64,000 nucleotides of DNA. Origin: an uncultured Gammaproteobacteria bacterium (lineage in GTDB: Bacteria > Patescibacteriota > Microgenomatia > UBA10105 > UBA927). The position numbers and the translations under genes were made by a program. Of this stretch, positions 2,456 through 63,431 are shown in pieces. The stretch lies in the NCBI GenBank assembly GCA_964629685.1, contig CAZVTT010000002.1:120039-184038 (forward strand). Direction: 5' to 3'. Position 1 is the stretch's first letter. Every line of letters starts with the position of its first letter. The notes under the pieces are model-generated. The model was not told the origin of the DNA, did not search any database, and saw only the letters and a program-made list of their open reading frames with translations.

Positions 2456-4168
2456 GTGGAGAGTATTCTCATTATTAATACGTTTGTTTTGGTTTTTTTG
2501 TCCGCAATTTTGGGCGGACTTCTGGCATATCGATTCCGTTTCCCGATGTTAATCGGATATATTGCAGCCGGAATGTTGTTCGGGAACGTATTTTTACGGT
2601 TTACCAACAGAGAATTGTTACAGATTGTTGCGGATGTGGGTGTAACCCTATTGTTGTTTACATTGGGGATAGAGTTCTCTTTTCACCGGCTGCGGCATGT
2701 GCTGAAAAATATAGGACCAGTGGCTATGCTGCAGGTGGTCGTTTCCATCATGGCATTCTCGGTTCTGTTCTTTCTGGCTGCGTTTAATTTCCCCCAGGCA
2801 CTCTTTTTGGCAACGGTGGCGTCCTTATCTTCAACTGCAGTAGCCGTAAAAATTCTTTCTGAAAAAGGGGAATTGGACTCCGTTCCCGGAGAAGTACTTA
2901 CGGGTTGGCTGATTGTGCAGGATCTGGCGGTTATTCCCATCATGGTTTTATTGCCCACCATTTCAGCAATAGGTGGTGCCACATGGTCTTGGATTATTCC
3001 ACTGCTCATGAGTTTAGCAAAGGCGGGAATATATATCGGAGCGATCATCGGCCTAGGCAGGTTTGGCGTGCCGCTGCTGCTAAATTGGATTGCGGCATTT
3101 AAAAGCCGGGAATTACTGCTGCTCACCACTGTGGGAGTAGTGTTTTTAGCGGCAGTTACCAGCTATGCCATGGGGCTTTCCGCAGGGTTGGGCGCATTTA
3201 TTGCCGGGCTACTTATCGCGGAAACCAGTCAGAATCATGCAATTTTTGCTGAAGTCAGACCGCTGCGGGATGTGTTTGCCGTAGTATTTTTTGTAACGTT
3301 AGGTATGACTATTCCGGCAGCTTTTTTTCTGAATCACGCGCTGATTTTGAGTTTAGCGGTGCTTACGGTACTCGGCATAAAGTTTATTGTGACTTATTTT
3401 TTAACCCGGAGCCGAAAATATCATCCCAAAACGTCATTTATCGTGGCGCTTGGTTTGCTACCGGTGAGCGAATTCGGTTTCTTAATTGCCAGAGAAGGTT
3501 TACAGCGCGGTATCCTGACTCAGGATGATTATTTTTTGGCCGTGGCGGTAACGTTTATTTCTTTGATTATCGGCGCACCGCTCTTAACAAACGGACAAAA
3601 TCTCTATTACCATTTATTCCGTACCGTACGGGAAAAGCTTCCGCACCTTTTTCCCGTCTCGCTTCCCAAAGTGTCAGATGATGCGGTAGCACCGCTGCAG
3701 GGGCACGTAGTTCTATTAGGATATGGTAGGGTCGGTAAGTACATCGGACGGGCATTGAGTCTCTCCGGTATTCCTTTTCTGGTAGTGGATTTTAATCACG
3801 CGACGGTAGCTAAGCTCATCCGTGAAGGGCAACAGGTTATTTATGGTGATCCTGCAGATACGGCAGTATTGGCGCATGCGAATATTCCATTAGCACGGGC
3901 GGTGGTAATTACCATTCCCGACCGGCATACCCAAGAGCTCGTAGTGACCAATGTATTGACGTTAAATCAACATATTTCCATTATCTGTCGTACTCATCAT
4001 GAAGAAGATCAGCGCCGTTTAAAGTCATTAGGCGTGACGACAATCGTTCAACCGGAATTTGAAGCGTCACTGTCGATTACGAACCGACTGCTAGCGGCCA
4101 GTGGATTGTCCGAATCAGAAATCCAGGGAAAAATCAGTCGTCTGAAAATTGAACACGGGTTGGGCTAA
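2456..4168 (+). CDS. Kef-type monovalent cation:proton antiporter (CPA2) with C-terminal RCK/TrkA-N domain
   Basis: About 12 TM N-terminal Na+/H+ exchanger-like region, then a Rossmann GxGxxG motif (VVLLGYGRVGKYIG) typical of KefB/KefC RCK domains. Confidence 0.8.
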   Translation: MESILIINTFVLVFLSAILGGLLAYRFRFPMLIGYIAAGMLFGNVFLRFTNRELLQIVADVGVTLLLFTLGIEFSFHRLRHVLKNIGPVAMLQVVVSIMAFSVLFFLAAFNFPQALFLATVASLSSTAVAVKILSEKGELDSVPGEVLTGWLIVQDLAVIPIMVLLPTISAIGGATWSWIIPLLMSLAKAGIYIGAIIGLGRFGVPLLLNWIAAFKSRELLLLTTVGVVFLAAVTSYAMGLSAGLGAFIAGLLIAETSQNHAIFAEVRPLRDVFAVVFFVTLGMTIPAAFFLNHALILSLAVLTVLGIKFIVTYFLTRSRKYHPKTSFIVALGLLPVSEFGFLIAREGLQRGILTQDDYFLAVAVTFISLIIGAPLLTNGQNLYYHLFRTVREKLPHLFPVSLPKVSDDAVAPLQGHVVLLGYGRVGKYIGRALSLSGIPFLVVDFNHATVAKLIREGQQVIYGDPADTAVLAHANIPLARAVVITIPDRHTQELVVTNVLTLNQHISIICRTHHEEDQRRLKSLGVTTIVQPEFEASLSITNRLLAASGLSESEIQGKISRLKIEHGLG

Positions 4169-5419
<1,251 letters not shown>

Positions 5420-5440
5420 GAACAGTGTGAAGGGAGGATC

Positions 5441-5590
5441 ATGGGATCATTTAGTGGATTTTACAAGGGCGAAAAGAAAAAAATGAAGAAAACGGAACTG
5501 GAGAAAAAAGCCCAAAAGCAATTGGGAAGTAGCGGCTCCTGGCAAATGCCTCAAGTGGAGATCATCAAAAAAGGGAAAAAAGAAGATTAA
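5441..5590 (+). CDS. Small Lys-rich protein (49 aa), unlisted in ORF track
   Basis: ATG at 5441 with GGGAGG 6 nt upstream. Stop TAA at 5588-5590 is followed 2 nt later by the next gene's ATG. Sequence: MGSFSGFYKGEKKKMKKTELEKKAQKQLGSSGSWQMPQVEIIKKGKKED. Confidence 0.45.
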   Translation: MGSFSGFYKGEKKKMKKTELEKKAQKQLGSSGSWQMPQVEIIKKGKKED

Positions 5591-5592
5591 TA

Positions 5593-6564
5593 ATGAGACG
5601 AACTCAGCTGCCCCGTCAACCGCGGAAAAAGTGGTACCGTGTGGTGTTTCTCGCCGGTATTATTGTACTTATTCTTGCGTTGCTGTTCCGCTGGGTGGCT
5701 CCCCGCACTGCCGATTTACCATTACGTGCCAGTATCCTGATTTTGGATTCCGATATCTTTCGGGTTATTTCCTGGGATCGGACAAACAACAGGTACATCG
5801 TCGTTTCCATTCCCGTTACAACCACAGTCTCCGGTACCCGCGGATACGGTACGTACAGTCTGGAATCGCTCTGGAAATTGGATAGACTTGACCATCACAA
5901 AGGACAGCTGGTTAAGGAATCGGTGGAAGAAACACTCGGTATTCCGGTGCAATACTACATCGTTAGCCAGACGGGTGTTCCTGCTGCCACTTCTGCCATG
6001 GATACACTCAAGTCCATCCTATCGTATGGCAAATTATTTCAGGTAGCCAGAAAAGGGGTAGAAACAGATATTCCCGTTTCTGCTTTTTCGGCTTTCGTTT
6101 TTGCGGCACGCGATATATCGTTTGGAGATGTAAAAATGTTGGAAATTCCTAAAACCAGTGTGCTTGTACCGCAGAATCGTGCCGACGGTAGTGAGCAGAT
6201 AATATTTGATGTACAAAGATTTGACGCGATAATCGGTACCTTATTCGAGTTGCTGCCGATCCGTAATGAACGGTTAACGGTAACGGTTTCCAATACTACC
6301 GGTGTTCCCGCATTGGGAACACGCGCTTCGCGTCTGCTTAGTCATTTAGGAGTATTAGTAGTCTCCGTCGGCAACGAAACTCCTTTGCTCGACCAGTGTG
6401 AACTCCGAGGAAGAGAGGAAACCTTGCAGTCAGAAACGGCAAAACTTATACAGAGGACACTTCAATGTAAACCGGTAACGGTGCCACAAATGGGTACTAC
6501 CGATTTTGACGTAAGAGTGGGGAAGTCGTATCAACGGCGGTTTGAACCTGCCGAAACAAAATAA
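5593..6564 (+). CDS. LytR-CpsA-Psr (LCP)-family cell-envelope phosphotransferase-like protein
   Basis: N-terminal TM anchor followed by an LCP-like core (ILILDSD..VVSIP..GxGxYxL...VEETLGIPVQYYIV). Assignment from pattern memory. Confidence 0.5.
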   Translation: MRRTQLPRQPRKKWYRVVFLAGIIVLILALLFRWVAPRTADLPLRASILILDSDIFRVISWDRTNNRYIVVSIPVTTTVSGTRGYGTYSLESLWKLDRLDHHKGQLVKESVEETLGIPVQYYIVSQTGVPAATSAMDTLKSILSYGKLFQVARKGVETDIPVSAFSAFVFAARDISFGDVKMLEIPKTSVLVPQNRADGSEQIIFDVQRFDAIIGTLFELLPIRNERLTVTVSNTTGVPALGTRASRLLSHLGVLVVSVGNETPLLDQCELRGREETLQSETAKLIQRTLQCKPVTVPQMGTTDFDVRVGKSYQRRFEPAETK

Positions 6565-49980: not shown

Positions 49981-52002
49981 CTACTGAGTCTTAAGTTCCA
50001 ACCCGATTTCTGTGGCCGCGTTCAGAACCTTTGCACGCAAAGTTTTTATATTTTCCGTCGTTAATGTTTTTGTGGTGTCTAAATATTCAATTCGGATAGT
50101 GCGTATATTCTGATAACTATCTATTAGCAATACGCGACGAATGGTGGGATCAATGGATGTGAATGTCTTGATTAAGGTACCCACCCTGAATCCCGGCGGA
50201 ACAATGAAAGAAAAATCTTCCCGGACTGCCGGATATTTAGGAATGGGGATATACCTTCGTTGCGGATGGGCATGTGCTGCCATTTCATCGAGGTAAAGGT
50301 GTAGTACCGTTAGCGGTTTATTAATATGCATCTCCGTCAGGAGTTGCTGATGTATTTCTCCGAATGATCCGTATCTTCCCAACGAATAGGAATGATGCGG
50401 TTGAAGGTACGGATACGTCGATGCTTCCGGTTCATCCGGGAAAGGAATACCCATACTATCGAATAATGCCTGAGCAAGTCCTTTGGCATGGGCGAATTGT
50501 TCTCCGGTCCAGCAGACGAGGAGTGTCGGGCGTTCGTGCGGCAGTTCCGCCTTCCGGAAATGATATTCCATAGAAAGTTCAAAAAGATTAAACGTGCTGC
50601 GGTGGTGAAGGTTTTCTTCTACTGTTTTTAGCATACTCGGAAGCAGCAGTGGCCTCATGTATACCCATTCTGTCGAAAGCGGGTTAGTTATTTTATAGGC
50701 AGCACCCGTGTCCAGTCCGAACGTTTTCATGAGTTCTTCTGAGATCATTGAATACGTATATGTTTCGGTATATCCCCAATCCCTAAGTTTGGTTTTTATG
50801 ATTTCCTCCCAATTGAGGATAGGATCGGGTTGAACAACCGGTGGCTCGGTGTCCGGTAATCTGGTTTTCAGATTGTGATATCCGTATAATCTGGCAATTT
50901 CTTCAATAATGTCTACGTCGCGCGTAACATCACGTCTGAAGCTGGGGATTTTTGCCGTGACGGTGGTTTTGTTTAGCGTGGGAATAAATCCGAGCGGTGA
51001 GAGTATAGTCTGAATTTCTTTATCTTTGAGATCAACGCCCATATATGCCGATAATTTTTGACGGGTAACGGATACCGAGGAGGGTTTATACGCTTTGGGA
51101 TGTATGTCATATACGCTACTGGCGACTTGGGCACCAGCTAATGTAGTAGCCATTTCTACCCCACGGATAAACGCCGGAAGAACGAGTTCAGTATCCGTTC
51201 CTTTTTCAAAAAGTCCGGCTGCCTCCGTTCGGTGTGCCAGCTTCATGGATGTGCGTCGAATCCGTACAGGATCGTATGTCTGTAAAAATAGAATAACGGT
51301 AGTGGTTTTTTCGGTGATGGAGGAATTTTCCGCTCCCATTATGCCGCACAGATCAATGAGTCTGCCTGATTCGTCTTCGATCACGATGTCACCCCCGGGG
51401 AGGATATGGGTTTTCCCGTCTAACGTCGTAATTTTTTCATGTTTGCGGGATTCACGCAGCTTCATGGTAGGTATTCCGTTTTTGGATGCTATACGGTCAT
51501 AGTCAAATGCATGTGCCGGTTGCCCATAGCAGCGCATCAGGTAATTGGTAATATCAACAACAATATTCAATGAGCGAATACCGGTTTTTTCTAATTTTTG
51601 TTGCAACCATTTCGGCGATGGCCCTACGGTAACATGTTCCAACACAATAGACGTCCAGCGGGGATTTAAGCGAGGGTCGGTAAATATTTTCAGTTTTTTT
51701 GTCCCCGCTCTTTTGTATTTTCGGATAAATGCAGCGGTATCGGTAGCATACGGATCCTGCAGCAGCTTGGCTTTAATGCCAAATCGCGGGAGTATGGCAG
51801 CGGCTTCTCTGGCAACACCGGATACGGACATGGAATCCGGTCTATTCGTCGTAATTTCTATGTCATATACCACTTCGCCATTCACGGTGTTTATCCGTTC
51901 AATAGACGGACCGCAAAGGGAAAGATATTCTTTCAATTGTGCCGGGCTTGCTTTTGTCTGCAAAAATTCCCTTAACCACGAATCAGGTATGAGTATATTC
52001 AT
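49981..52002 (-). CDS. pheT: Phenylalanyl-tRNA synthetase beta subunit (short form, apparently lacking B2 tRNA-binding OB domain)
   Basis: B1 N-terminus (WLREFL), then directly the B3/B4 motif EITTNRPDSMSVSGVAREAAA, a B5 and the C-terminal catalytic-like domain. 673 aa against the usual ~800. Confidence 0.85.
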   Translation of the reverse strand: MNILIPDSWLREFLQTKASPAQLKEYLSLCGPSIERINTVNGEVVYDIEITTNRPDSMSVSGVAREAAAILPRFGIKAKLLQDPYATDTAAFIRKYKRAGTKKLKIFTDPRLNPRWTSIVLEHVTVGPSPKWLQQKLEKTGIRSLNIVVDITNYLMRCYGQPAHAFDYDRIASKNGIPTMKLRESRKHEKITTLDGKTHILPGGDIVIEDESGRLIDLCGIMGAENSSITEKTTTVILFLQTYDPVRIRRTSMKLAHRTEAAGLFEKGTDTELVLPAFIRGVEMATTLAGAQVASSVYDIHPKAYKPSSVSVTRQKLSAYMGVDLKDKEIQTILSPLGFIPTLNKTTVTAKIPSFRRDVTRDVDIIEEIARLYGYHNLKTRLPDTEPPVVQPDPILNWEEIIKTKLRDWGYTETYTYSMISEELMKTFGLDTGAAYKITNPLSTEWVYMRPLLLPSMLKTVEENLHHRSTFNLFELSMEYHFRKAELPHERPTLLVCWTGEQFAHAKGLAQALFDSMGIPFPDEPEASTYPYLQPHHSYSLGRYGSFGEIHQQLLTEMHINKPLTVLHLYLDEMAAHAHPQRRYIPIPKYPAVREDFSFIVPPGFRVGTLIKTFTSIDPTIRRVLLIDSYQNIRTIRIEYLDTTKTLTTENIKTLRAKVLNAATEIGLELKTQ

Positions 52003-52010
52003 AAATGCAT

Positions 52011-53786
52011 TTAGAATTGTTCCAAAAATCTTATGTCATTACTGTACAGTAATCGGATATCATCAAGTTTAGTTCCGGATTTCATCATGTATGTGCGCTC
52101 TACTCCCCATCCAAAGGCAAAGCCGTTGTATATTTGCGTATCCACGTTCCCATTCGCGAGTACTACGGGATGGACCATCCCTGCTCCGCCCAATTCGAGC
52201 CAACCTTCTTTGCAAAGTCTGCACCCGTTGCCGTTACATACATCACAACTTATATCTACTTCAAATGACGGTTCGGTAAATTGAAAATGAAATGGGCGGA
52301 TTCTGGCTTTTCTTTCCGGTCCGAAGAATTGTTTTACGAAATAATCCAGTACTCCTTTTAGATGTCCGATTGAGACATTTTTGTCTACGTATAACCCCTC
52401 AAACTGGTGAAACATAGGCACATGGGAAATGTCCGATTGCCGGCGGTAACACTTGGCTATATTTATCATTCTGATCGGCAAATTCTTTTTTAGCATTTCT
52501 CTGACTTGTCCGTTTGACGTATGTGGTGTCAGAACCATTTTCGAAAATTTTTCATTTTTTGGTTTGCTGTCCACAAAGAACGTTTCCCACTCGTCTCTGG
52601 CCGGATGATCCGGGGGCATGTTTAGCGATTCGAAGGGGTACCAATCCCAATCTACCTCTGGATGTCTTACCCTCGTGAAGCCTATCCGTTCGAATATTTT
52701 GGTAATTTCGGTTATTGCCTGACTTACTATATGCAGGTGTCCCTGAGGCGGCAGGATCCCCGGCACGGAGGTATCAAACGTATCCTGCTCTGTACTTATG
52801 GCATGTTTCCGTTCATATTCCTGTAATGCCACTTCTACCGATGATTTTACTTCATTAATAAGTGTCCCTATGCGTTGCCGTTGCTCTTGCGGTACGAATC
52901 TAAGCTGTCTGGTGAGATTGGCAAACTCACTTTTGCTTCCGAGCATTTTCAATCGGACTTCATTTGGTGGGTCTTCCGATTGGTGAATGGTTGTGAGTGC
53001 AGTCTGTTGTATTTCCAAAATAAGTGAGGTAAGTGCTGAAGGTGATAAGAGTTGTTGTTCGTCAGTTTGTTTTGGAGTTATAACCGGAACACTATAATAT
53101 ACTTTCACCGTGTCTTGGTTGTGGACAATTGCTGTTACGTGAATTTGCCCTACCTCATCCGTAGTTTTTACCTGTGTGCCGCCGTCCGGAATTGGTGTAT
53201 AACCGGCAATATTTACTATACGGAGCGGTTTATGTTTTGGTAAATATTCGGGCACATGCGATACCAGTTGCGCTAATTCCTGAAGTGAAACAAAACGGGT
53301 TGATATTACCAGTTTTCTGCTGATAATTTGATTTGCTGTGTGTTCTATGGGTTTCTGCATTTCTTCCGATATGCTGCCCGAATATTCGATGAAAGACTGG
53401 TCCCCGTGTTCACCCTTTAGCGGTTTTAGTGATGGCACATGGTGCATAACGGCTTCATGCAAAATATGTCCGGCACTATGTACCTGCATATGCCTGTATC
53501 GCAGATTCCAGTTTATGGTTGTTTCAACGATTTCTTCCGGTGAGATTACGCCGTTAAGTTTCCCTTCATGAATAACCGTGCCTTGTTGAAGCCGTACATG
53601 TGTGACGGAAAGCGTTCCGTTTTTCCCGGTGATTTGCCCTTTATCTGAAGGTTGTCCGCCGCCTTGCGGGTAAAATATCGTTTTATCCAGAACGATTTCG
53701 GTTATATCTCCATGTTTGGCCACGGAGATAACTCTCGCGGAGAGTGACTTTTTATAACTGTCGGTTAAATACATGCATTCGGTCAT
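52011..53786 (-). CDS. pheS: Phenylalanyl-tRNA synthetase alpha subunit fused to an N-terminal AlaX-like (tRNA_SAD / editing-type) domain
   Basis: C-terminal 340 aa are canonical PheS class II motifs: DHPARDEW, TPHTSNGQ, FHQFEGL, FQFTEPSFEVD, GFAFGWGVER. N-terminal ~250 aa read MTECMYLTDSY…FYPQGGGQPSDKGQI…HSAGHILH, as in AlaX-M. Start chosen at the ATG at 53786; the listed start at 53828 is a TTG. Confidence 0.8.
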   Translation of the reverse strand: MTECMYLTDSYKKSLSARVISVAKHGDITEIVLDKTIFYPQGGGQPSDKGQITGKNGTLSVTHVRLQQGTVIHEGKLNGVISPEEIVETTINWNLRYRHMQVHSAGHILHEAVMHHVPSLKPLKGEHGDQSFIEYSGSISEEMQKPIEHTANQIISRKLVISTRFVSLQELAQLVSHVPEYLPKHKPLRIVNIAGYTPIPDGGTQVKTTDEVGQIHVTAIVHNQDTVKVYYSVPVITPKQTDEQQLLSPSALTSLILEIQQTALTTIHQSEDPPNEVRLKMLGSKSEFANLTRQLRFVPQEQRQRIGTLINEVKSSVEVALQEYERKHAISTEQDTFDTSVPGILPPQGHLHIVSQAITEITKIFERIGFTRVRHPEVDWDWYPFESLNMPPDHPARDEWETFFVDSKPKNEKFSKMVLTPHTSNGQVREMLKKNLPIRMINIAKCYRRQSDISHVPMFHQFEGLYVDKNVSIGHLKGVLDYFVKQFFGPERKARIRPFHFQFTEPSFEVDISCDVCNGNGCRLCKEGWLELGGAGMVHPVVLANGNVDTQIYNGFAFGWGVERTYMMKSGTKLDDIRLLYSNDIRFLEQF

Positions 53787-53840
53787 ACGTGTGTATGTAT
53801 TGTACGGTGATAGTAACACCGGCTTCAAGCATACGGCAAT

Positions 53841-53864
53841 AAAAAACCTCCTTATCGGAGGTTA
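53841..53864 (-). terminator. Rho-independent terminator/attenuator between rplT and pheS
   Basis: Minus-strand RNA reads AACCUCC-GAUAA-GGAGGUU followed by UUUUUU. The mirror A-tract and T-rich flank make it bidirectional. Confidence 0.7.
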
Positions 53865-53904
53865 CTTTGGGTTTTTCTTGTTTTGCACTATCCCCAAGTA
53901 CCTC

Positions 53905-53952
53905 CTAAAGAAGGCTAAAGTAAAATTCAAAAAAAAGCACGTTTGCTGACAT
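53905..53952 (-). CDS. pheM: pheM-like Phe-rich leader peptide (15 aa), unlisted
   Basis: ATG lies 4 nt after the rplT stop. It encodes MSANVLFFEFYFSLL with 4 Phe and 1 Tyr (E. coli PheM is [15 protein letters not shown]). Its stop abuts a GGAGGUAC segment able to pair with the terminator 5' arm. Confidence 0.6.
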   Translation of the reverse strand: MSANVLFFEFYFSLL

Positions 53953-53956
53953 ACCG

Positions 53957-55074: not shown

Positions 55075-56847
55075 CTAAAGTTTATGCTCAATCTCGTTTT
55101 GAATCCGTTTGGTAAAGTCTGCAAGACTCATTGTCTTGAGGTCTTCTCCCCTGCGATTCCGTACCGAAAGGCCACCCGAGGCCAATTCTCGATCCCCTAT
55201 TATACCCATGTAGGGTACTTTTTGTAAAGTATAGGCGCGTATTTTAGCTTGCATAGACTCGCTCCTATCATCCAGCTCAGCCCGAATACCCCCGGCTTTG
55301 AGTTGTTTTTCCAGCTCACGGGCACCCTCAATATGTCGTTCTGCAATGGGAATTAGCCCCACTTGTACCGGTGCCAGCCATACGGGGAATGCTCCGGCAA
55401 AGTGTTCTATGAGGAAAGCCATAGTACGTTCTATAGCTCCAATAGATGACCGGTGGATCACAATCGGTTCCGTTTCGGAACCTGAGGAGTCTACGTACCG
55501 TAGTTTAAACCGTTTCGGCATGACAAAATCATATTGAACGGTAAATGCCGTTTCTTCTTTCCCCGAAATGTTTTTCATTTGGACATCAATTTTAGGACCA
55601 TAAAAAGCCGCCTCATTTTCGGCTTCATAATACGTAGCCTTCCGGTCCGACAATACCGTACGTAAGACGCTTTCCGCTTCGTCCCACGCAGCATCGTCTT
55701 TATAGTATTTTTTGTCATCGTTCCGGTTGCCCAAAGACAAGCGGTACCGGTAATTTTCTCCAGGGTTTAAACCAAACACCTGTGCCACAGCGTCTATCAA
55801 ATCCAGAACGCCGTTAATTTCCGAGGCTGCCTGATCTTTGGTGGCGATAATGTGTGCATCAGCCAGACAGAACCCTCGGACACGCATAAGTCCGGTGAGT
55901 TCTCCGGATTTTTCATACCGGTAGAGTTTAGCCAGTTCCGCATAACGAACAGGTAACTCTTTATAGCTCCTTGGCCGGGATTTGAATAGTTCAAAATGAT
56001 GCGGACAGGTCATGGGGCGCAGCATATATTCTTCATCGTCTATGGTTATCGGTGCGTACATTGTGTCTTTATAATATGGATAATGTCCTGACGTTTTGTA
56101 TAATTCCAGATTGGCGATGTCCGGCGTGTATACATGCAGGTAGCCACGTTTTAACTCTTCGTCCACGATAAAGCGTTCAAGTTCTCTCCGTACCGTAGCT
56201 CCTTTTGGTGTCCAAAGCGGTAGTCCTTTGCCGACCAGATCGGAAAATACAAACAAGTCCAGGTCCGCACCAAGTTTCCGGTGATCCCGCTTTCTGGCTT
56301 CTTCCTGCATCGTTAAGAACGCTTCCAATTCCGCACGTGTCGGAAAACAGGTACCGTATATTCTGGTTAACATTTTGTTTTTTTCGCTTCCGCGCCAGTA
56401 TGCTCCGGCCACGCTAAGCAATTTAAAATGCTTTAGTTCCTTATCTGGATGCTGGCAGTGTCCACCGCGGCATAGATCCCAATACGAACCGGATTTATAG
56501 AAGGTAAGCGTTTGTCCTTCTCCGGAAAACTCATCAATCAATTCATGTTTATATACGTTGTCGGGATATTCCTGTTTAGCTGATTCAGGTGATAGCTCAT
56601 GTCGTTCAAACGATTTCCATTGTGGCAGAAGTTCTTTCATTTTTTCTTCTATAGCCGGAAAGTCGTCTTCGGATACTTTTATGTCACCGAAGTCAAAATC
56701 AAAATAAAAACCGGTTTCAATTGCCGGGCCTATGGTGCGTTTGGCATTCGGCCATAGTTCCATTACCGCTGCGGCCAATAGGTGTGCGCAAGAATGACGC
56801 AGGTGTTCTAGTTTTTCTCTATCGTGACTATCCATATTTCCTCCCAT
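55075..56847 (-). CDS. thrS: Threonyl-tRNA synthetase (lacking N-terminal TGS domain; editing HxxxH/CxxxH present)
   Basis: HSCAHLL and DLCRGGHC editing motifs, then class II catalytic motifs and an anticodon-binding domain. Confidence 0.9.
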   Translation of the reverse strand: MGGNMDSHDREKLEHLRHSCAHLLAAAVMELWPNAKRTIGPAIETGFYFDFDFGDIKVSEDDFPAIEEKMKELLPQWKSFERHELSPESAKQEYPDNVYKHELIDEFSGEGQTLTFYKSGSYWDLCRGGHCQHPDKELKHFKLLSVAGAYWRGSEKNKMLTRIYGTCFPTRAELEAFLTMQEEARKRDHRKLGADLDLFVFSDLVGKGLPLWTPKGATVRRELERFIVDEELKRGYLHVYTPDIANLELYKTSGHYPYYKDTMYAPITIDDEEYMLRPMTCPHHFELFKSRPRSYKELPVRYAELAKLYRYEKSGELTGLMRVRGFCLADAHIIATKDQAASEINGVLDLIDAVAQVFGLNPGENYRYRLSLGNRNDDKKYYKDDAAWDEAESVLRTVLSDRKATYYEAENEAAFYGPKIDVQMKNISGKEETAFTVQYDFVMPKRFKLRYVDSSGSETEPIVIHRSSIGAIERTMAFLIEHFAGAFPVWLAPVQVGLIPIAERHIEGARELEKQLKAGGIRAELDDRSESMQAKIRAYTLQKVPYMGIIGDRELASGGLSVRNRRGEDLKTMSLADFTKRIQNEIEHKL

Positions 56848-57806: not shown

Positions 57807-58412
57807 ATGGAATTTAAACGAATCAGTGCAGGAATCGCATCTGCATCCCTTATTGCTACCCTACTGGCTCCTGCGGCTTTTGCAGAGACCACGGTAACGG
57901 TTGAAGGAAACGGTGCCGATTCTCATAATGTGGTTGAATTAACCACAGCAAACACTACTACCGTGGATGTTATAACGGAAACAAATGTCAGTAATAAAGT
58001 AAAAACTACAGCCAATTCCGGCAATAACAAAGCCAGTGGTAACACCGGCGACGGAAACGTGACGGTAGGTTCCGGAGATGCAACCGCAACCACAACTGTT
58101 ACTACGCTGGTAGGCGGTACATCTGTAACCGTCGAAGGCAATTGCGGCTGCGAGAAAGATACAGACGTAACCGTAAAAGGTAATGGTGTAGATTCTTACT
58201 CAAAAGTAAAACTGAATAATACTAACGCCAAAGCTGTTGGTGTTGCTGCGTCCGCTAAGGTTAAATCCAAAGTTAAGACAAAAGCGAAATCAGGTAAGAA
58301 TATTGCCAAGAACAACACTGGCGTGGGAGACACCGATGTTTCATCAGGTGACGCAACCAGTGATACAACTATTGATACTGTTGTTGAACCAACAACCGTA
58401 TCGGTAAAGTAA
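57807..58412 (+). CDS. Secreted repeat protein (paralog family A; 2 repeat units, no anchor)
   Basis: Signal peptide (…APAAFA|ETT), two units of a GNGxDSxNxVxL…NSGNNxAxGNTGxGxVxVGSGDAxA repeat and an NCGCE Cys pair. GGGAGGTGAAAAATAATG RBS context. Confidence 0.75.
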   Translation: MEFKRISAGIASASLIATLLAPAAFAETTVTVEGNGADSHNVVELTTANTTTVDVITETNVSNKVKTTANSGNNKASGNTGDGNVTVGSGDATATTTVTTLVGGTSVTVEGNCGCEKDTDVTVKGNGVDSYSKVKLNNTNAKAVGVAASAKVKSKVKTKAKSGKNIAKNNTGVGDTDVSSGDATSDTTIDTVVEPTTVSVK

Positions 58413-59788: not shown

Positions 59789-62062
59789 TTATGAGGCAGT
59801 GGACAGCAGTCGTCGTTTGATTCGCAGAATTGCAAATCTGACAGCGACCAGAAGTATACCACAGGGGATTGCCAGAATCAACCAAGCCAGGTTTATCTGT
59901 ACTACCCGTTTGCCGGCTACAGTGGGTTCCGGCGTGATTACGGCGTTACTCGTGGTATCACCTGTGGTGAAAGCAGCTACTTCACCTTCTGTCTGACTTG
60001 TTTTAGTCGAACCAGCTACTGTTTTACCGGTACCTCCTACCTTGACCGATTTGGGTGTCGGGGTAGGTGTAATACCCACTTTTGTTGTGGCAGTGGTTTC
60101 GTTTGACGAACTGTTGGGTGTGGGTGTCGGTGTAGGCGTATTTGTCGCTTGTACCTGAACGTTTGTTCCACTGATTGCCTGTGTGTTTTCCGGTGCAGCT
60201 GCGACTGATTTGGTTTCTTTATGAGCTCCCGGCGTCACGAAGTCTCCCAGCCAGCTGCCGAACACGTTTACTACGGTTACTACCAGTTTCCCGTTCCCGA
60301 CAATATTATTGTTTACGAAGTTCACCATGTTGGCAATGATGTTGGCGTCGCCCGTTTTAATGGATGAATTGCCGCCCGTGTTATTGCTGCTGTCATTTCC
60401 GCCTGAATTGGCCGACAAATCAAGGTTGTTTACTATATTAGCGGTGTTCGTTTGTACGGTAGTGTTTGAATTTGTATTCGTGACCGAACCGGTATTGGTG
60501 GAATTTGAGCCGTTTCCGTTATTTGAAGCGGTAATTTCACCTGCGGGAGATACATTAAACTCGGTTCCGGCTGAACCAGCCAGATTGTCTGCGCCTGATT
60601 CTCCGCCGATGATCCGCCCGACCCAGTTTCCGGCTTCATTTACCAACACTAACCACCAGTTTCCGCCGTCGACGTTGTTATTGGCAACGTTTAGTACGTT
60701 GGCATCAATTGTGGTATTGCCGGTGTCTATTTTAGTGTCCCCTCCGGTATTTCCTCCGGCCGTGTTATTCCCGGTTTGGGTGTCTAATGTCAGGACATTT
60801 TCGATAGTTGCATCGTTGTATTGAAAGGTAGAGTCGCTGTTAGATGTGCTTACGGCTGCGTTATTTTCTGATCCGGATCCGTTTCCGGTATTGGCGACTC
60901 CGGTTGATCCGGTTCCGCAGCAGGAATTTGCTAACAGTTCTTCAGGAAACAGGATGTCTCCTACCAGGTCGCCGTAAATATTTACGACTCCATAGAGTAC
61001 ATTCCCCGCAATGTTGTTGTTGGCGAAGGTTAACACGTTTGCGGATACATTGGCGTCTCCGGTTTTTATAGTTGAATCCCCACCGGTATTTCCGCTGGCT
61101 GAGTTATCTCCGGAATTTGAATCCAGTACTAATGTATTCCCGATCGTAGCGTCATTGTTTTGGAAAGTGGCTTTATCCGAACTGGTATCTATGTTTGCCG
61201 TATTATCCGAACCTGTGCCGTTTTTTTGATTTGTCGCTTCTAGAGATCCATTGTCGCATCCCGTGAGACAACCTGCTCCGAAATCAAGCACAATGTCACC
61301 GGTGTGATCGTCATTAACGTTAAATTCAGAAACCATTACGCCGTCTACGTTTGTATTGACTGCAGTAATAATTGTACCCGATGTGTTGGCGTCTCCGGTG
61401 GAAATGGCAGAAGAACCTACATTGTTATCCGCATTATTTTTTCCGGTGGTAGTGTTTTGTTCTAGGTCATTGTTTACACTGGCAGAGTTATCCTGAACGG
61501 TTGTTGATGAATCGCTGATTTGTGCTGAACTATCGTTGTCTGAATTTGATCCGTTTCCGGTATTGGAAACACCGATACTTCCGTCTTCTCCTCCGACGGG
61601 AACTACTGCGCTATTGTTGTTTCCGGTAGTAATAATGGCGGCATCGTTTGTGGCGTCTCCGGTTTTAATTTCGGTATCTCCGGTCGTACCGCTTTGTGTC
61701 TGCCCGTCAGTTGTTGCCGTTTGAGTCTGTTCCGGTGTCGGAGTAGTCGTAGGCGACGGTGTGGACGTTGTGTTTTGTTGTGTGCTGGGTGTTTCCGGCG
61801 CTTCGGTCGGTCGCGGTCTTCTGGTTGGAGTTGGTGATGGTTCATTTGCAGGCGTCGGTTCTGTTGTGGGTTCTGCCGGATGGGACGGTGATGAAGGTAC
61901 TTCCGGTGTCGATGGAGCTGTCGGAGCTGTCGGCGCATCCGGAGTAGTCGGAACAACAGGGACATCAGGTACGTCAATAGCACCTACTATGCTGACATTT
62001 TGGCTGAGTAACAGTACGACTATTACGAAGCTCGCCAGTAATTTTTTGAATGATTGTTTCAT
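59789..62062 (-). CDS. Large cell-surface repeat protein (family A, ~5 units) with mucin-like Pro/Thr linkers and C-terminal sorting signal
   Basis: Signal peptide and a PT-rich N-terminal linker (PTAPTAPSTP…). Repeated NTGNGSxSxN…TGxNxAxGNTGGDxxIKTGDANxxANVL…NNNI units. Cys pairs (GCLTGCD, SCCGT). C-terminus TPEPTVAGKR then TM then RIKRR. Start set at ATG 62062; the listed start is a TTG. Confidence 0.7.
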   Translation of the reverse strand: MKQSFKKLLASFVIVVLLLSQNVSIVGAIDVPDVPVVPTTPDAPTAPTAPSTPEVPSSPSHPAEPTTEPTPANEPSPTPTRRPRPTEAPETPSTQQNTTSTPSPTTTPTPEQTQTATTDGQTQSGTTGDTEIKTGDATNDAAIITTGNNNSAVVPVGGEDGSIGVSNTGNGSNSDNDSSAQISDSSTTVQDNSASVNNDLEQNTTTGKNNADNNVGSSAISTGDANTSGTIITAVNTNVDGVMVSEFNVNDDHTGDIVLDFGAGCLTGCDNGSLEATNQKNGTGSDNTANIDTSSDKATFQNNDATIGNTLVLDSNSGDNSASGNTGGDSTIKTGDANVSANVLTFANNNIAGNVLYGVVNIYGDLVGDILFPEELLANSCCGTGSTGVANTGNGSGSENNAAVSTSNSDSTFQYNDATIENVLTLDTQTGNNTAGGNTGGDTKIDTGNTTIDANVLNVANNNVDGGNWWLVLVNEAGNWVGRIIGGESGADNLAGSAGTEFNVSPAGEITASNNGNGSNSTNTGSVTNTNSNTTVQTNTANIVNNLDLSANSGGNDSSNNTGGNSSIKTGDANIIANMVNFVNNNIVGNGKLVVTVVNVFGSWLGDFVTPGAHKETKSVAAAPENTQAISGTNVQVQATNTPTPTPTPNSSSNETTATTKVGITPTPTPKSVKVGGTGKTVAGSTKTSQTEGEVAAFTTGDTTSNAVITPEPTVAGKRVVQINLAWLILAIPCGILLVAVRFAILRIKRRLLSTAS

Positions 62063-62186
62063 AGTGTCCTGTCTCAATCCCGCACCACTATTGTGTGGGA
62101 TCGATACAAAGCCCTATATATTTATCTCTTTGTTCGTAGGGTGTCCCGCCGAAGTGAAGCGAGACTACCCTACGAACCTCTAGAGA

Positions 62187-63431
62187 TTAGTTACCTAGTA
62201 AAGCCATCAATTGACTCAAGCTCAACGAAACGTTGAAATTGAAATCAAATTCAGGTACTTCCCAGCCGCCTACGTCACCGTAGACGTTAACATTTCCGGA
62301 ATTTCCGATTTCTGTTGTGGAAGTGGCACTACCGGTATCGATGGAAGGATCTCCACCGTATACTGATCCGGTATTGTCATCTGCATCGTTTTTGCCAGTT
62401 GTGGCATCTGCGTCAGCGTCGTTGTAAAGTCTGGCTTCGTTTCCTGCGCCTTCTTTACCACCTTGGAAGACTTCAACAGCGTCGTCAAAGTAACCTTTGA
62501 TTTCGTTGTCTGAGTCGGTTCCGTTTCCGCCTACCTTTGCAGAGATATCCAGCAAGCATCCGCAGTCAACTTCGGCTGCGTTGAAATTGACCATGTTGTC
62601 GATAGTTACATCAGCGGTCGCGTCACCCGTATCTACTGATACTTCTCCACCGGTGTTGTCATCGGCTTCGTTGTATCCTGTATCTGCGCCTGCATCTACG
62701 TGATTTTTCACTGATGCAAAGTTATCCTGCACTACTGCAGTTTCGTGATCGAGATCCAATTTGATTTCATTATCGCTGTATGATCCGTTTCCGAGAATTT
62801 TGGCAGAGACTTCGCCACTCTGGTCTCCGGCACCACCACCTACTTGTGCTTTGTTAGCATTCGCGGTTGTGGATACGGTTACCGTTGTATCGGCATCTCC
62901 GGTATTGATTTCTACATCACCACCGGTATTGTCATCTGCATCATTCTTTCCGGTCTTTGCATCTGCGTCGATTTTGTTTTCGACTTTAGCTGCATTGTCT
63001 TGGAAGACGCTAGTCTTGTTGTCCTGATCAAGTTCAACTTTATTGTCGGACTTGGTTCCGTTTCCACTGATGAGAACATCAGTATCGCCGGCTTGGCAAC
63101 ATTCGACTTTAGCCTCGTTGGTGTTCAGGTTGTTGGATACGGAGACGTCTGTCTTAGCATCACCTGTGTCAACCTTTACATCTCCACCGGTATTATCACT
63201 GGCGCTGTTGTTTCCTGTATCAGCGTTTGCGCTGACTTTGTTGGTTACAACTGCGCTGTTGTTCTGAACAACTGTTGTCGTGTTGTCACGATCTAACTTG
63301 ATTTCGCTGTCAGAGTTGGATCCGTTTCCACTAACTTCGAGAGTTGTAGAAGCGGCAACCGGAGTGACCAAGTTCAAGACCAGTGATCCCGTTGCAAGGA
63401 CGGAAAGTACTTGTCGTTTGAAGTGTGTCAT
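62187..63431 (-). CDS. Secreted repeat protein (family A, 4 tandem ~85-aa units, no anchor)
   Basis: Signal peptide, then four units: GNGxxSDNxIxLDxDxxTxVxQxNxAxVxNxVxAxADTGxNxADDNTGGxVxVDTGDAxxDV. ECCQ and DCGC Cys pairs. AAGGAGGTGAAAAATAATTATG RBS context. Confidence 0.75.
   Translation of the reverse strand: MTHFKRQVLSVLATGSLVLNLVTPVAASTTLEVSGNGSNSDSEIKLDRDNTTTVVQNNSAVVTNKVSANADTGNNSASDNTGGDVKVDTGDAKTDVSVSNNLNTNEAKVECCQAGDTDVLISGNGTKSDNKVELDQDNKTSVFQDNAAKVENKIDADAKTGKNDADDNTGGDVEINTGDADTTVTVSTTANANKAQVGGGAGDQSGEVSAKILGNGSYSDNEIKLDLDHETAVVQDNFASVKNHVDAGADTGYNEADDNTGGEVSVDTGDATADVTIDNMVNFNAAEVDCGCLLDISAKVGGNGTDSDNEIKGYFDDAVEVFQGGKEGAGNEARLYNDADADATTGKNDADDNTGSVYGGDPSIDTGSATSTTEIGNSGNVNVYGDVGGWEVPEFDFNFNVSLSLSQLMALLGN

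Follow-up and report, generated by a model that had tools for sequence, protein, structure and literature searches.

An AlaX-M-like module fused to phenylalanyl-tRNA synthetase in a bacterial radiation, with a conserved Asp/Gln variant of its second motif

The fidelity of phenylalanyl-tRNA synthetase (PheRS), that is, its discrimination of Phe from Tyr and meta-tyrosine (m-Tyr), is a classic example of post-transfer editing and is credited solely to the B3/B4 domains of the beta subunit. Why, then, should a PheRS alpha subunit carry at its N-terminus a complete domain of the AlaX-M type? The question is raised by the pheS gene located at 52011..53786 on the minus strand of a 64,000-nucleotide (nt) stretch of contig CAZVTT010000002.1 (positions 120,039 to 184,038; assembly GCA_964629685.1), deposited as an uncultured Gammaproteobacteria bacterium and placed by GTDB in the Patescibacteriota, Microgenomatia. 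This whole stretch is hereafter referred to as the window; coordinates count from its first letter, and the features described are on the minus strand unless otherwise indicated. Our analysis indicated that the AlaX fold has been built into PheRS across a bacterial radiation, on either subunit and more than once, with a fixed Asp/Gln pair in its second motif and, in one lineage, together with a remodelled B3/B4 pocket. The conservation of the module and its attachment to either subunit suggest an undescribed accessory function of PheRS, most likely extra proofreading.

The gene lies in a single open reading frame (ORF), which the ORF listing of the window gives as 52011..53828 with a 605-aa product from a TTG start. 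An ATG at 53786 yields instead a 591-aa product beginning with MTECMYLTDSY, from which the frame runs without interruption over 591 codons to the TAA stop at 52011-52013. This start, already chosen in a previous reading of the sequence alone (hereafter the sequence-only reading), agrees with an identical database protein (P0001) and with all homologs, which share MT-x-L-I-Y-L beginnings. The C-terminal part was found to be the normal PheS that had been proposed: residues 291-591 match the NCBIfam profile TIGR00468 at 246.5 bits, above the curated cutoff of 237.45, and the PheS part of a predicted structure matched PheRS alpha chains in Foldseek. Both domains expected of an alpha subunit are in place, namely the class II catalytic core (residues 336-591; 52014..52781; Pfam PF01409 at residues 337-591, E 2.7e-78) and the N-terminal helical/coiled-coil region (residues 249-335; 52782..53042; PF02912 at residues 275-325, model helices at 249-333). 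The genomic context is likewise that of a pheST cluster, with rplT, rpmI, infC, and thrS upstream of pheS and the start of pheT 8 nt past the pheS stop. In this Gottesmanbacteria-like bacterium, pheS encodes a genuine PheRS alpha subunit bearing a complete AlaX-M-type module, which is joined by a short, poorly conserved linker (residues 234-248; 53043..53087), of low predicted local distance difference test (pLDDT) values and differing length among homologs, placed before the coiled coil.

The N-terminal match to AlaX-M proteins, proposed in the sequence-only reading by inspection, was borne out by profile, sequence, and structure comparisons. The NCBIfam AlaXM model (NF040865) aligns to residues 2-220 over model positions 1-219 of 234 (E 3.9e-42), at a score of 144.6 bits that lies below the curated equivalog cutoff of 300 bits, and PF01411, the barrel part of the Pfam AlaRS model, matches residues 21-94. 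The further expectation of a tRNA_SAD domain did not hold for this protein, since PF07973 produced no match to the window PheS at E<=0.01; it matches nine of its 120 closest relatives. Among structures in the PDB, phmmer retrieved AlaX-M (9IUW, 1.2e-18; 2E1B, 7.4e-16) and the archaeal AlaRS editing region (2ZZE, 1.7e-16; also 3WQY). The fold was then recovered, as anticipated, in an AlphaFold2 model built on 60 family members, in which pLDDT exceeds 90 for residues 1-230. The model superposes in Foldseek on 2ZZE with a root-mean-square deviation of 2.2 Å over 248 columns and on AlaX-M at template modelling (TM) scores of 0.87 (9IUW) and 0.85 (3KEW), and it is thus predicted to adopt the two-subdomain fold of a beta-barrel and an editing core.

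The beta-barrel subdomain spans residues 1-92 (53511..53786) and harbors the Gly-rich motif FYPQGGGQPSD (GGGQ at 53652-53663), in which GGGQ, D48, and G50 are invariant. The editing core follows at residues 93-233 (53088..53510) and is supported by the AlaXM profile, the PDB alignments, and Foldseek alike. It bears the retained first zinc/catalytic motif HxxxH as HSAGH (residues 103-107; 53466..53480) and, at residues 201-205 (53172..53186), the sequence DGGTQ as a conserved variant of CxGxH. The Gly-rich motif, HSAGH, and DGGTQV (residues 201-206) were all confirmed at the computed coordinates. Here, PIPDGGTQV aligns column by column onto the IPCGGTHV of AlaX-M and AlaRS (2E1B, 9IUW, and 2ZZE), with Asp in the place of Cys and Gln in the place of His. 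Measured against AlaX-M proper, the module therefore has the two-subdomain fold and HxxxH, and lacks CxGxH, a score at the curated level, and the free-standing state (~210-250 aa).

It has been reported that HXXXH/CXGXH is universally conserved in the AlaX/AlaRS-type editing family (PMC12003907), and the departure seen here had been described as a degenerate motif. The replacement itself was confirmed, whereas the notion of degeneracy was not upheld. Among the 120 closest relatives, HSAGH or a close variant is present in 119 and D-G-G-T-Q in ~112; in the alignment of 60 sequences, H103, H107, D201, G203, and T204 never vary, Q205 shows at least 90% conservation, and R96, K186, and R189 stand out as invariant basic residues. 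A profile search of 1.84 billion cluster representatives yielded 15,330 relatives, of which the best 150 (50%-identity clusters) were aligned to the profile. In these 150, the ligand columns read H,H/C,H in 93 and H,H/D,Q in 22, and a few others have D,H, D,I, or D,L. In the PheRS-linked clade, the Cys of CxGxH has become a conserved Asp and the His a Gln (or His, Leu, or Ile). When 32 Asp-type sequences were compared with 117 of the Cys/His type, the systematic differences were limited to C201D, H205Q, and P128G. Shared by both types are T36, F38, P40, GGGQ, D48, G50, H73, R96, H103, H107, R189, G202, G203, and Y231. Because D..Q is conserved and the rest of the pocket signature is kept, inferring inactivity from motif decay would be unsafe. 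The Asp/Gln site, which is only putatively catalytic, is an exception to a motif reported as universal. H127 was considered as a compensating fourth ligand and was discarded, as this His is equally conserved in the canonical C..H relatives (93/151). The ThrRS of the window (55075-56847, 590 aa) keeps the canonical HSCAH and CRGGH, which makes the Cys-to-Asp change specific to the PheS module and not a genome-wide trend; this ThrRS gave no match to TGS (N1) and begins at its N2 domain, consistent with the absence of TGS noted previously.

Asp at the Cys position was also observed outside PheRS, in free-standing AlaX-M-like proteins of ~235 aa with the motif (Q/L)(A/L)DGGTHV, QADGGTHV included (loci L014, L015, L017, L021, L023, L026, L028-L030, L035, L041, L052, L053, L056, and L076). 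These proteins are mostly archaeal (Micrarchaeota, Woesearchaeota, Thermoplasmatota, and Bathyarchaeia), and one Nanoarchaeota protein has DGGTQV. By their sequences, the archaeal DGGTHV proteins are natural exceptions to the CXGXH described as universally conserved.

The fused architecture is widespread, as the survey of related lineages proposed in the sequence-only reading made clear. In a search of 5.8 billion proteins, with 120 clusters among the matches listed, at least 120 clusters share it, nearly all at 100% query coverage, 50-80% identity, and with the same Pfam domains; where named, these relatives belong to Candidatus Gottesmanbacteria, Woesebacteria, or the "Patescibacteria group", and public examples are KKS40345.1, KKS84191.1, QQG41363.1, and MBI5449712.1. 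Among the matches listed in a scan of GTDB species genomes, taken as a sample rather than a census, we found more fused forms, including a Dojkabacteria metagenome-assembled genome and others (L003-L009). Mean pairwise identity is 52-53% in the two AlaX-like subdomains, 13% in the linker, 30% in the coiled coil, and 77% in the PheS core. Judged from these values, the AlaX-like region is a selected module on a variable tether.

Beyond this architecture, the survey of the 150 nearest cluster representatives revealed that the AlaX-like domain is coupled to PheRS in several other arrangements. Five representatives from sister lineages (P0127, P0137, P0139, P0143, and P0144) carry it at the C-terminus of PheT rather than on PheS. 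The P0143 locus (L088, fusion at 3406-5970) has the order infC-rpmI-rplT-pheS(327 aa)-...-pheT::AlaX-...-PBP1-RecG, which mirrors the gene order of the window. P0201 is an alpha fusion with a canonical C..H AlaX part that groups with ordinary free AlaX-M proteins and therefore represents an independent fusion. P0134 (L091) is a separate 246-aa D..Q gene 205 nt upstream of an unfused pheS, and P0126 (L083, 4821-5635), a free 243-aa D..H gene with the motif DGGVHV, ends 8 nt before tRNA-Phe(GAA); ~3 kb downstream are a pheS of normal type (345 aa) and a pheT of 787 aa with B2 and Glu334. In a neighbor-joining tree (no bootstrap) containing alpha-fused, beta-fused, and free forms, nearly all Asp variants, together with both fusion geometries, fall in one clade, at the base of which stands P0124, an alpha-fused member with C..H. 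Only one fusion to another synthetase was found among the 150, namely P0249 (762 aa), in which a class IIb core (PF00152, Asp/Lys/Asn type) has a canonical C..H AlaX domain at its C-terminus. These sequences point to no fewer than three separate fusions of the domain to a PheRS subunit, namely those of the main alpha clade, of P0201, and of the beta-fused proteins. Coupling this specific, and repeated, speaks for a module that functions together with PheRS or tRNA-Phe and is not a passenger. The PheT fusions, the split gene, and the adjacency to tRNA-Phe strengthen a PheRS-specific role and are compatible with catalysis or binding alike.

Two further observations concern this group. In P0144 (1089 aa), a B2-type tRNA_bind oligonucleotide/oligosaccharide-binding (OB) fold has been relocated between FDX-ACB and the AlaX-like domain. 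The free D..Q gene P0131 is flanked by a radical SAM gene and by one of the tyrosine decarboxylase type (PF00282 and PF21391; L084 8001-12236, L085 2816-7049), a link to aromatic amino acids that may be coincidental. Clearance of Ala-tRNA-Phe, formed by AlaRS on a tRNA-Phe with G3:U70 or G4:U69, was also considered and gained no support in what is a weak test: the sole tRNA-Phe(GAA) available, from L083, which is not an alpha-fused genome, has G3-C70 and U4-A69, with the discriminator G73.

The partner subunit is itself unusual. PheT (49981..52002) is 673 aa long and retains B3/4, B5, CLM, and FDX-ACB; TIGR00472 aligns its residues 44-669 to model positions 159-796, and since this alignment begins only at position 159, B2 is missing, in agreement with what had been noted from the sequence alone. 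The same absence was observed in all 120 PheT relatives of the window clade, in none of which more than 19 residues align to the B2 region. In the PheRS editing site, Glu334 has been reported as the residue that recognises the Tyr hydroxyl, with Asn254 and Thr354 holding the catalytic waters in position and His265 stacking against the substrate (PMC8599791). The window PheT has R244, T253, N254, H265, G318, T354, and A356 (E. coli numbering), so that the hydrolytic and substrate-binding set is complete. Across the 120 clade members T253, N254, H265, and G318 are invariant, A356 is found in 119, and Thr at position 354 (102 members) gives way to Ser in the other 18. The exception is the residue that reads the Tyr hydroxyl: the Glu334 equivalent is Phe239 in the window protein (51286..51288), and Phe is found there in 119 of the 120. 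In other alpha-fused lineages the residue is Trp, Gln, or Asp; Phe334 together with the absence of B2 is already seen in the PheT that partners the basal C..H fusion P0124.

On the evidence above, the best reading is that PheRS carries, on a tether, a cysteine-free deacylase or a module that handles aminoacyl-tRNA-Phe. In the mechanism that we propose, the module would form a PheRS-dedicated pocket for the aminoacyl-tRNA 3' end and would still be a hydrolase: tRNA-Phe would be captured when released from, or while still bound to, the (alpha-beta)2 enzyme, and mischarged species would be deacylated, Tyr or m-Tyr being the most obvious candidate substrates. Asp201 would take the role of the catalytic Cys, leaving a site insensitive to thiol oxidation and independent of a protective zinc, and in the window lineage the module might add to, or stand in for, the work of a B3/B4 pocket unable to read the Tyr hydroxyl. 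The canonical pathway is remodelled in this lineage, in which PheT keeps the hydrolytic residues, has Phe at the Glu334 position, and lacks B2; judging by its title, a study by Roy and Ibba (2006; cited in PMC5370408) found B2 dispensable for aminoacylation and contributing to editing. That zinc may be given up has a parallel in AlaX-type domains, in which it is described as dispensable for activity and as shielding the catalytic Cys from oxidation (PMC12003907). We consider it plausible, at somewhat below even chances, that the module still binds the aminoacylated 3' end and hydrolyses mischarged tRNA-Phe as a tethered trans-editing site. More tentative, and on the whole rather doubtful, is the fuller proposal that this AlaX-M-derived clade would provide PheRS-specific, cysteine-free, and probably zinc-independent proofreading, that it would have let the B3/B4 site of the Microgenomates-type members of the candidate phyla radiation (CPR) give up Glu334, and that DxGxQ would be a functional equivalent of CxGxH.

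Several observations weigh against proofreading by the module. The Cys of the second motif is described as crucial, to the point that E. coli AlaRS C666A serves as an editing-dead enzyme (PMC12003907), so that Asp may fail as its substitute. AlaX pockets are built for Ser and Gly, and nothing in this analysis indicates room for Tyr. The predicted TM score (pTM) of the model is 0.45, at which the inter-domain geometry is unreliable, so the model lends no support to a reach of the pocket to A76. Among six free-standing D-variant genes examined, four have no linkage to Phe genes, and a consistent linkage of such genes to pheST is ruled out, only two of the six being linked. Glu334, moreover, is kept in all five beta-fused PheT, in the PheT partner of P0201, which has B2 as well, and in the PheT near P0126, which implies that the role of the module is not simply to replace a dead B3/B4 site. 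An obligate coupling between the AlaX module and the loss of Glu334 is excluded by the same sequences (the beta-fused forms, the P0201 partner, and the L083 PheT), and the likeliest order of events is that the module was acquired first, with the remodelling of B3/B4 in the window lineage following later or independently.

A non-catalytic precedent counts against hydrolysis as well and stands behind the rival that survives best, namely that the module is a tRNA-Phe binding or positioning domain that has lost hydrolysis and may compensate for the missing B2 OB-fold of PheT. Apicomplexan TrpRS, a synthetase other than AlaRS or ThrRS, likewise bears an AlaX-family domain that a linker connects to its N-terminus, and the AlaX-like domain of Plasmodium TrpRS serves tRNA binding and aminoacylation without catalysis (PMC3680381). 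The replacement of the very residue reported as crucial for catalysis would fit such a role, as would the invariant basic residues R96, K186, and R189, the absence of B2 both in the window-clade PheT and from the N-terminus of all beta-fused PheT, and the P0144 arrangement, where the tRNA_bind OB-fold has come to lie right beside the AlaX-like domain. The apicomplexan TrpRS domain (AXD), however, is AlaX-S-like, is devoid of a beta-barrel, and retains none of the four ligands (D, S, N, and V instead; PMC3680381), whereas the PheS module is AlaX-M-like and keeps the HxxxH His pair, the Gly-rich loop, and the xGGTx loop invariant, with an invariant Asp at the Cys position and a conserved Gln. 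A pocket conserved to this extent goes beyond the needs of a pure surface-binding role. Nor is B2 loss tied to the module. The sequence-only reading had connected the short PheT with the fusion, a connection that fails because Dojkabacteria L008 and also L089 carry the fusion and B2 together and B2 is absent from many CPR PheT irrespective of the module, as already noted (PMC5370408); an obligate coupling of fusion and B2 loss is thereby ruled out. We regard a purely binding role as possible, with the balance of likelihood lying against it.

Next comes the proposal that the module retains the ordinary AlaX function, acting in trans to clear Ser- or Gly-tRNA-Ala, and that its attachment to PheRS does no more than secure co-expression or stability where the genome is reduced. 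The best scores are indeed to AlaXM and the AlaRS editing region, the hallmark residues are those of AlaX-M, some free clade members have no link to Phe genes, and UniRef names one family member "alanine--tRNA ligase". Against these points, at least three fusions to PheRS, a split gene, and the adjacency to tRNA-Phe are set beside a single fusion to another synthetase (P0249) among the 150 nearest representatives, a specificity that co-expression alone does not explain, and the change of the catalytic residue is specific to the PheRS-linked clade. We judge this explanation improbable. The chance is similarly small that the same fold has been turned to different chemistry, whether protection or sequestration of Phe-tRNA-Phe, hydrolysis of another acyl-tRNA or a small-molecule ester, or regulation and sensing. 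The catalytic motif is unlike that of every characterised member (PMC12003907), and one free D..Q member is found beside the radical SAM and tyrosine decarboxylase-type genes mentioned above, another among acetyltransferase and S66 peptidase genes; yet a tRNA substrate accords best with the retained signature of a complete aminoacyl-A76 pocket and with the ties to PheRS and tRNA-Phe, and positive evidence for other chemistry was not encountered. Finally, the idea that the fusion is an artefact, in which pheS was linked to a separate alaX gene by frameshift, misassembly, or read-through, for which only the two separate ORFs of P0134 on a 2-kb contig of L091 could be cited, can be set aside with near certainty, given a pheS frame continuous for 591 codons, an identical protein on two independent contigs, the same fused frame at 100% coverage in at least 120 clusters from many samples and assemblers, and a linker that is variable yet in frame across 60 aligned sequences.

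Returning to the proposed tethered proofreading module, its components can be placed against characterised systems. With Pyrococcus AlaX-M (2E1B, 9IUW; NF040865) it shares the two-part fold, the FYPxGGGQxxD loop, HxxxH, the xGGTxV loop, and conserved Arg and Tyr residues, and it differs in its fusion to PheRS, in DxGxQ for CxGxH, and in a score below the family cutoff; the substrates of AlaX-M are Ser- and Gly-tRNA-Ala, whereas for the window module both the genomic surroundings and the fusions point to tRNA-Phe. The AlaRS cis-editing domain (P. horikoshii 2ZZE, A. fulgidus 3WQY) and ThrRS N2 offer the same arrangement of a homologous fold appended to a class II synthetase. Here, however, the host is PheRS, the invariant Cys reported as crucial is gone, and the known PheRS editing site is the unrelated B3/B4 of the beta subunit. 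The canonical (alpha-beta)2 PheRS (E. coli 3PCO, T. thermophilus 2IY5) has in common with the window enzyme its alpha core and coiled coil and, in beta, B3/4, B5, CLM, and FDX-ACB, as well as the order thrS-infC-rpmI-rplT-pheS-pheT, which is found in both the window and E. coli; in the window enzyme, the alpha subunit has ~250 extra N-terminal residues, and the beta subunit lacks B2 and has Phe at the Glu334 position.

AARS Online lists the AlaX/ThrRS-N2 editing superfamily only for AlaRS and ThrRS (PMC11580382), and no description of an AlaX-PheRS fusion was found in our full-text literature searches. Editing-type domains appended to synthetases are already known; what is unusual is that the host is PheRS, that fusion occurs in two geometries, and that the catalytic motif is altered. 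If the proofreading role holds, the module would add a third route, unknown until now, to the quality control of PheRS and would be the first editing domain of the AlaX/ThrRS-N2 type to serve an aromatic-amino-acid synthetase, and the "universally conserved" CxGxH would prove replaceable by DxGxQ with function retained. The family also offers natural experiments on how synthetases gain and exchange editing sites, on whether the AlaX mechanism really needs cysteine and zinc, and on the accuracy of Phe codons in minimal-genome, amino-acid-scavenging organisms. On the practical side, the fused sequences have been public for years and are annotated merely as PheS, at least one of them as "alanine--tRNA ligase" in UniRef: UniRef100_A0A0G1EMD1, which corresponds to KKS84191.1 (P0096), is a PheRS alpha subunit in NCBI, an annotation conflict evidently caused by the AlaX-like N-terminal domain.

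The region upstream of pheS displays features of its own. The rplT-pheS spacer (53787-53956) contains a 15-codon Phe-rich mini-ORF, MSANVLFFEFYFSLL followed by a stop codon (53905..53952), which is a candidate pheM-like leader peptide; E. coli PheM was recovered as a control by the same mini-ORF script. Between this ORF and pheS lies a terminator-like hairpin, AACCUCC-GAUAA-GGAGGUU (53845..53863), followed by a U-tract, UUUUUAUU, and a GGAGGU at the leader stop codon could instead pair with the 5' arm of the hairpin. The spacer folds better than shuffled sequences (z = -2.5) and resembles an attenuator of the pheM type, here in a CPR bacterium. Mini-ORFs rich in Phe were also observed upstream of pheS in L005, L003, and L088 and were not found in six other loci. 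An Rfam scan of the 64-kb window produced no family at the gathering threshold, including no described Phe leader, and the window contains no tRNA genes; no alaS or free alaX gene was found among its large ORFs.

The pheST neighborhood further includes gyrB/gyrA, recG, tyrS (bacterial type, with an S4 domain), a gene for a PBP1-type protein of 872 aa, and a type II/IV secretion ATPase gene. The ORFs 59789-62077 (762 aa) and 62187-63431 (414 aa) gave no Pfam match at E<=1e-5. On the plus strand, 57807-58412 encodes a 201-aa Thr/Val/Lys-rich protein with an N-terminal hydrophobic, signal-like segment, in which two similar internal halves can be recognised by eye, VTVEGNG...GDATATTTV and VTVKGNG...GDATSDTTI.

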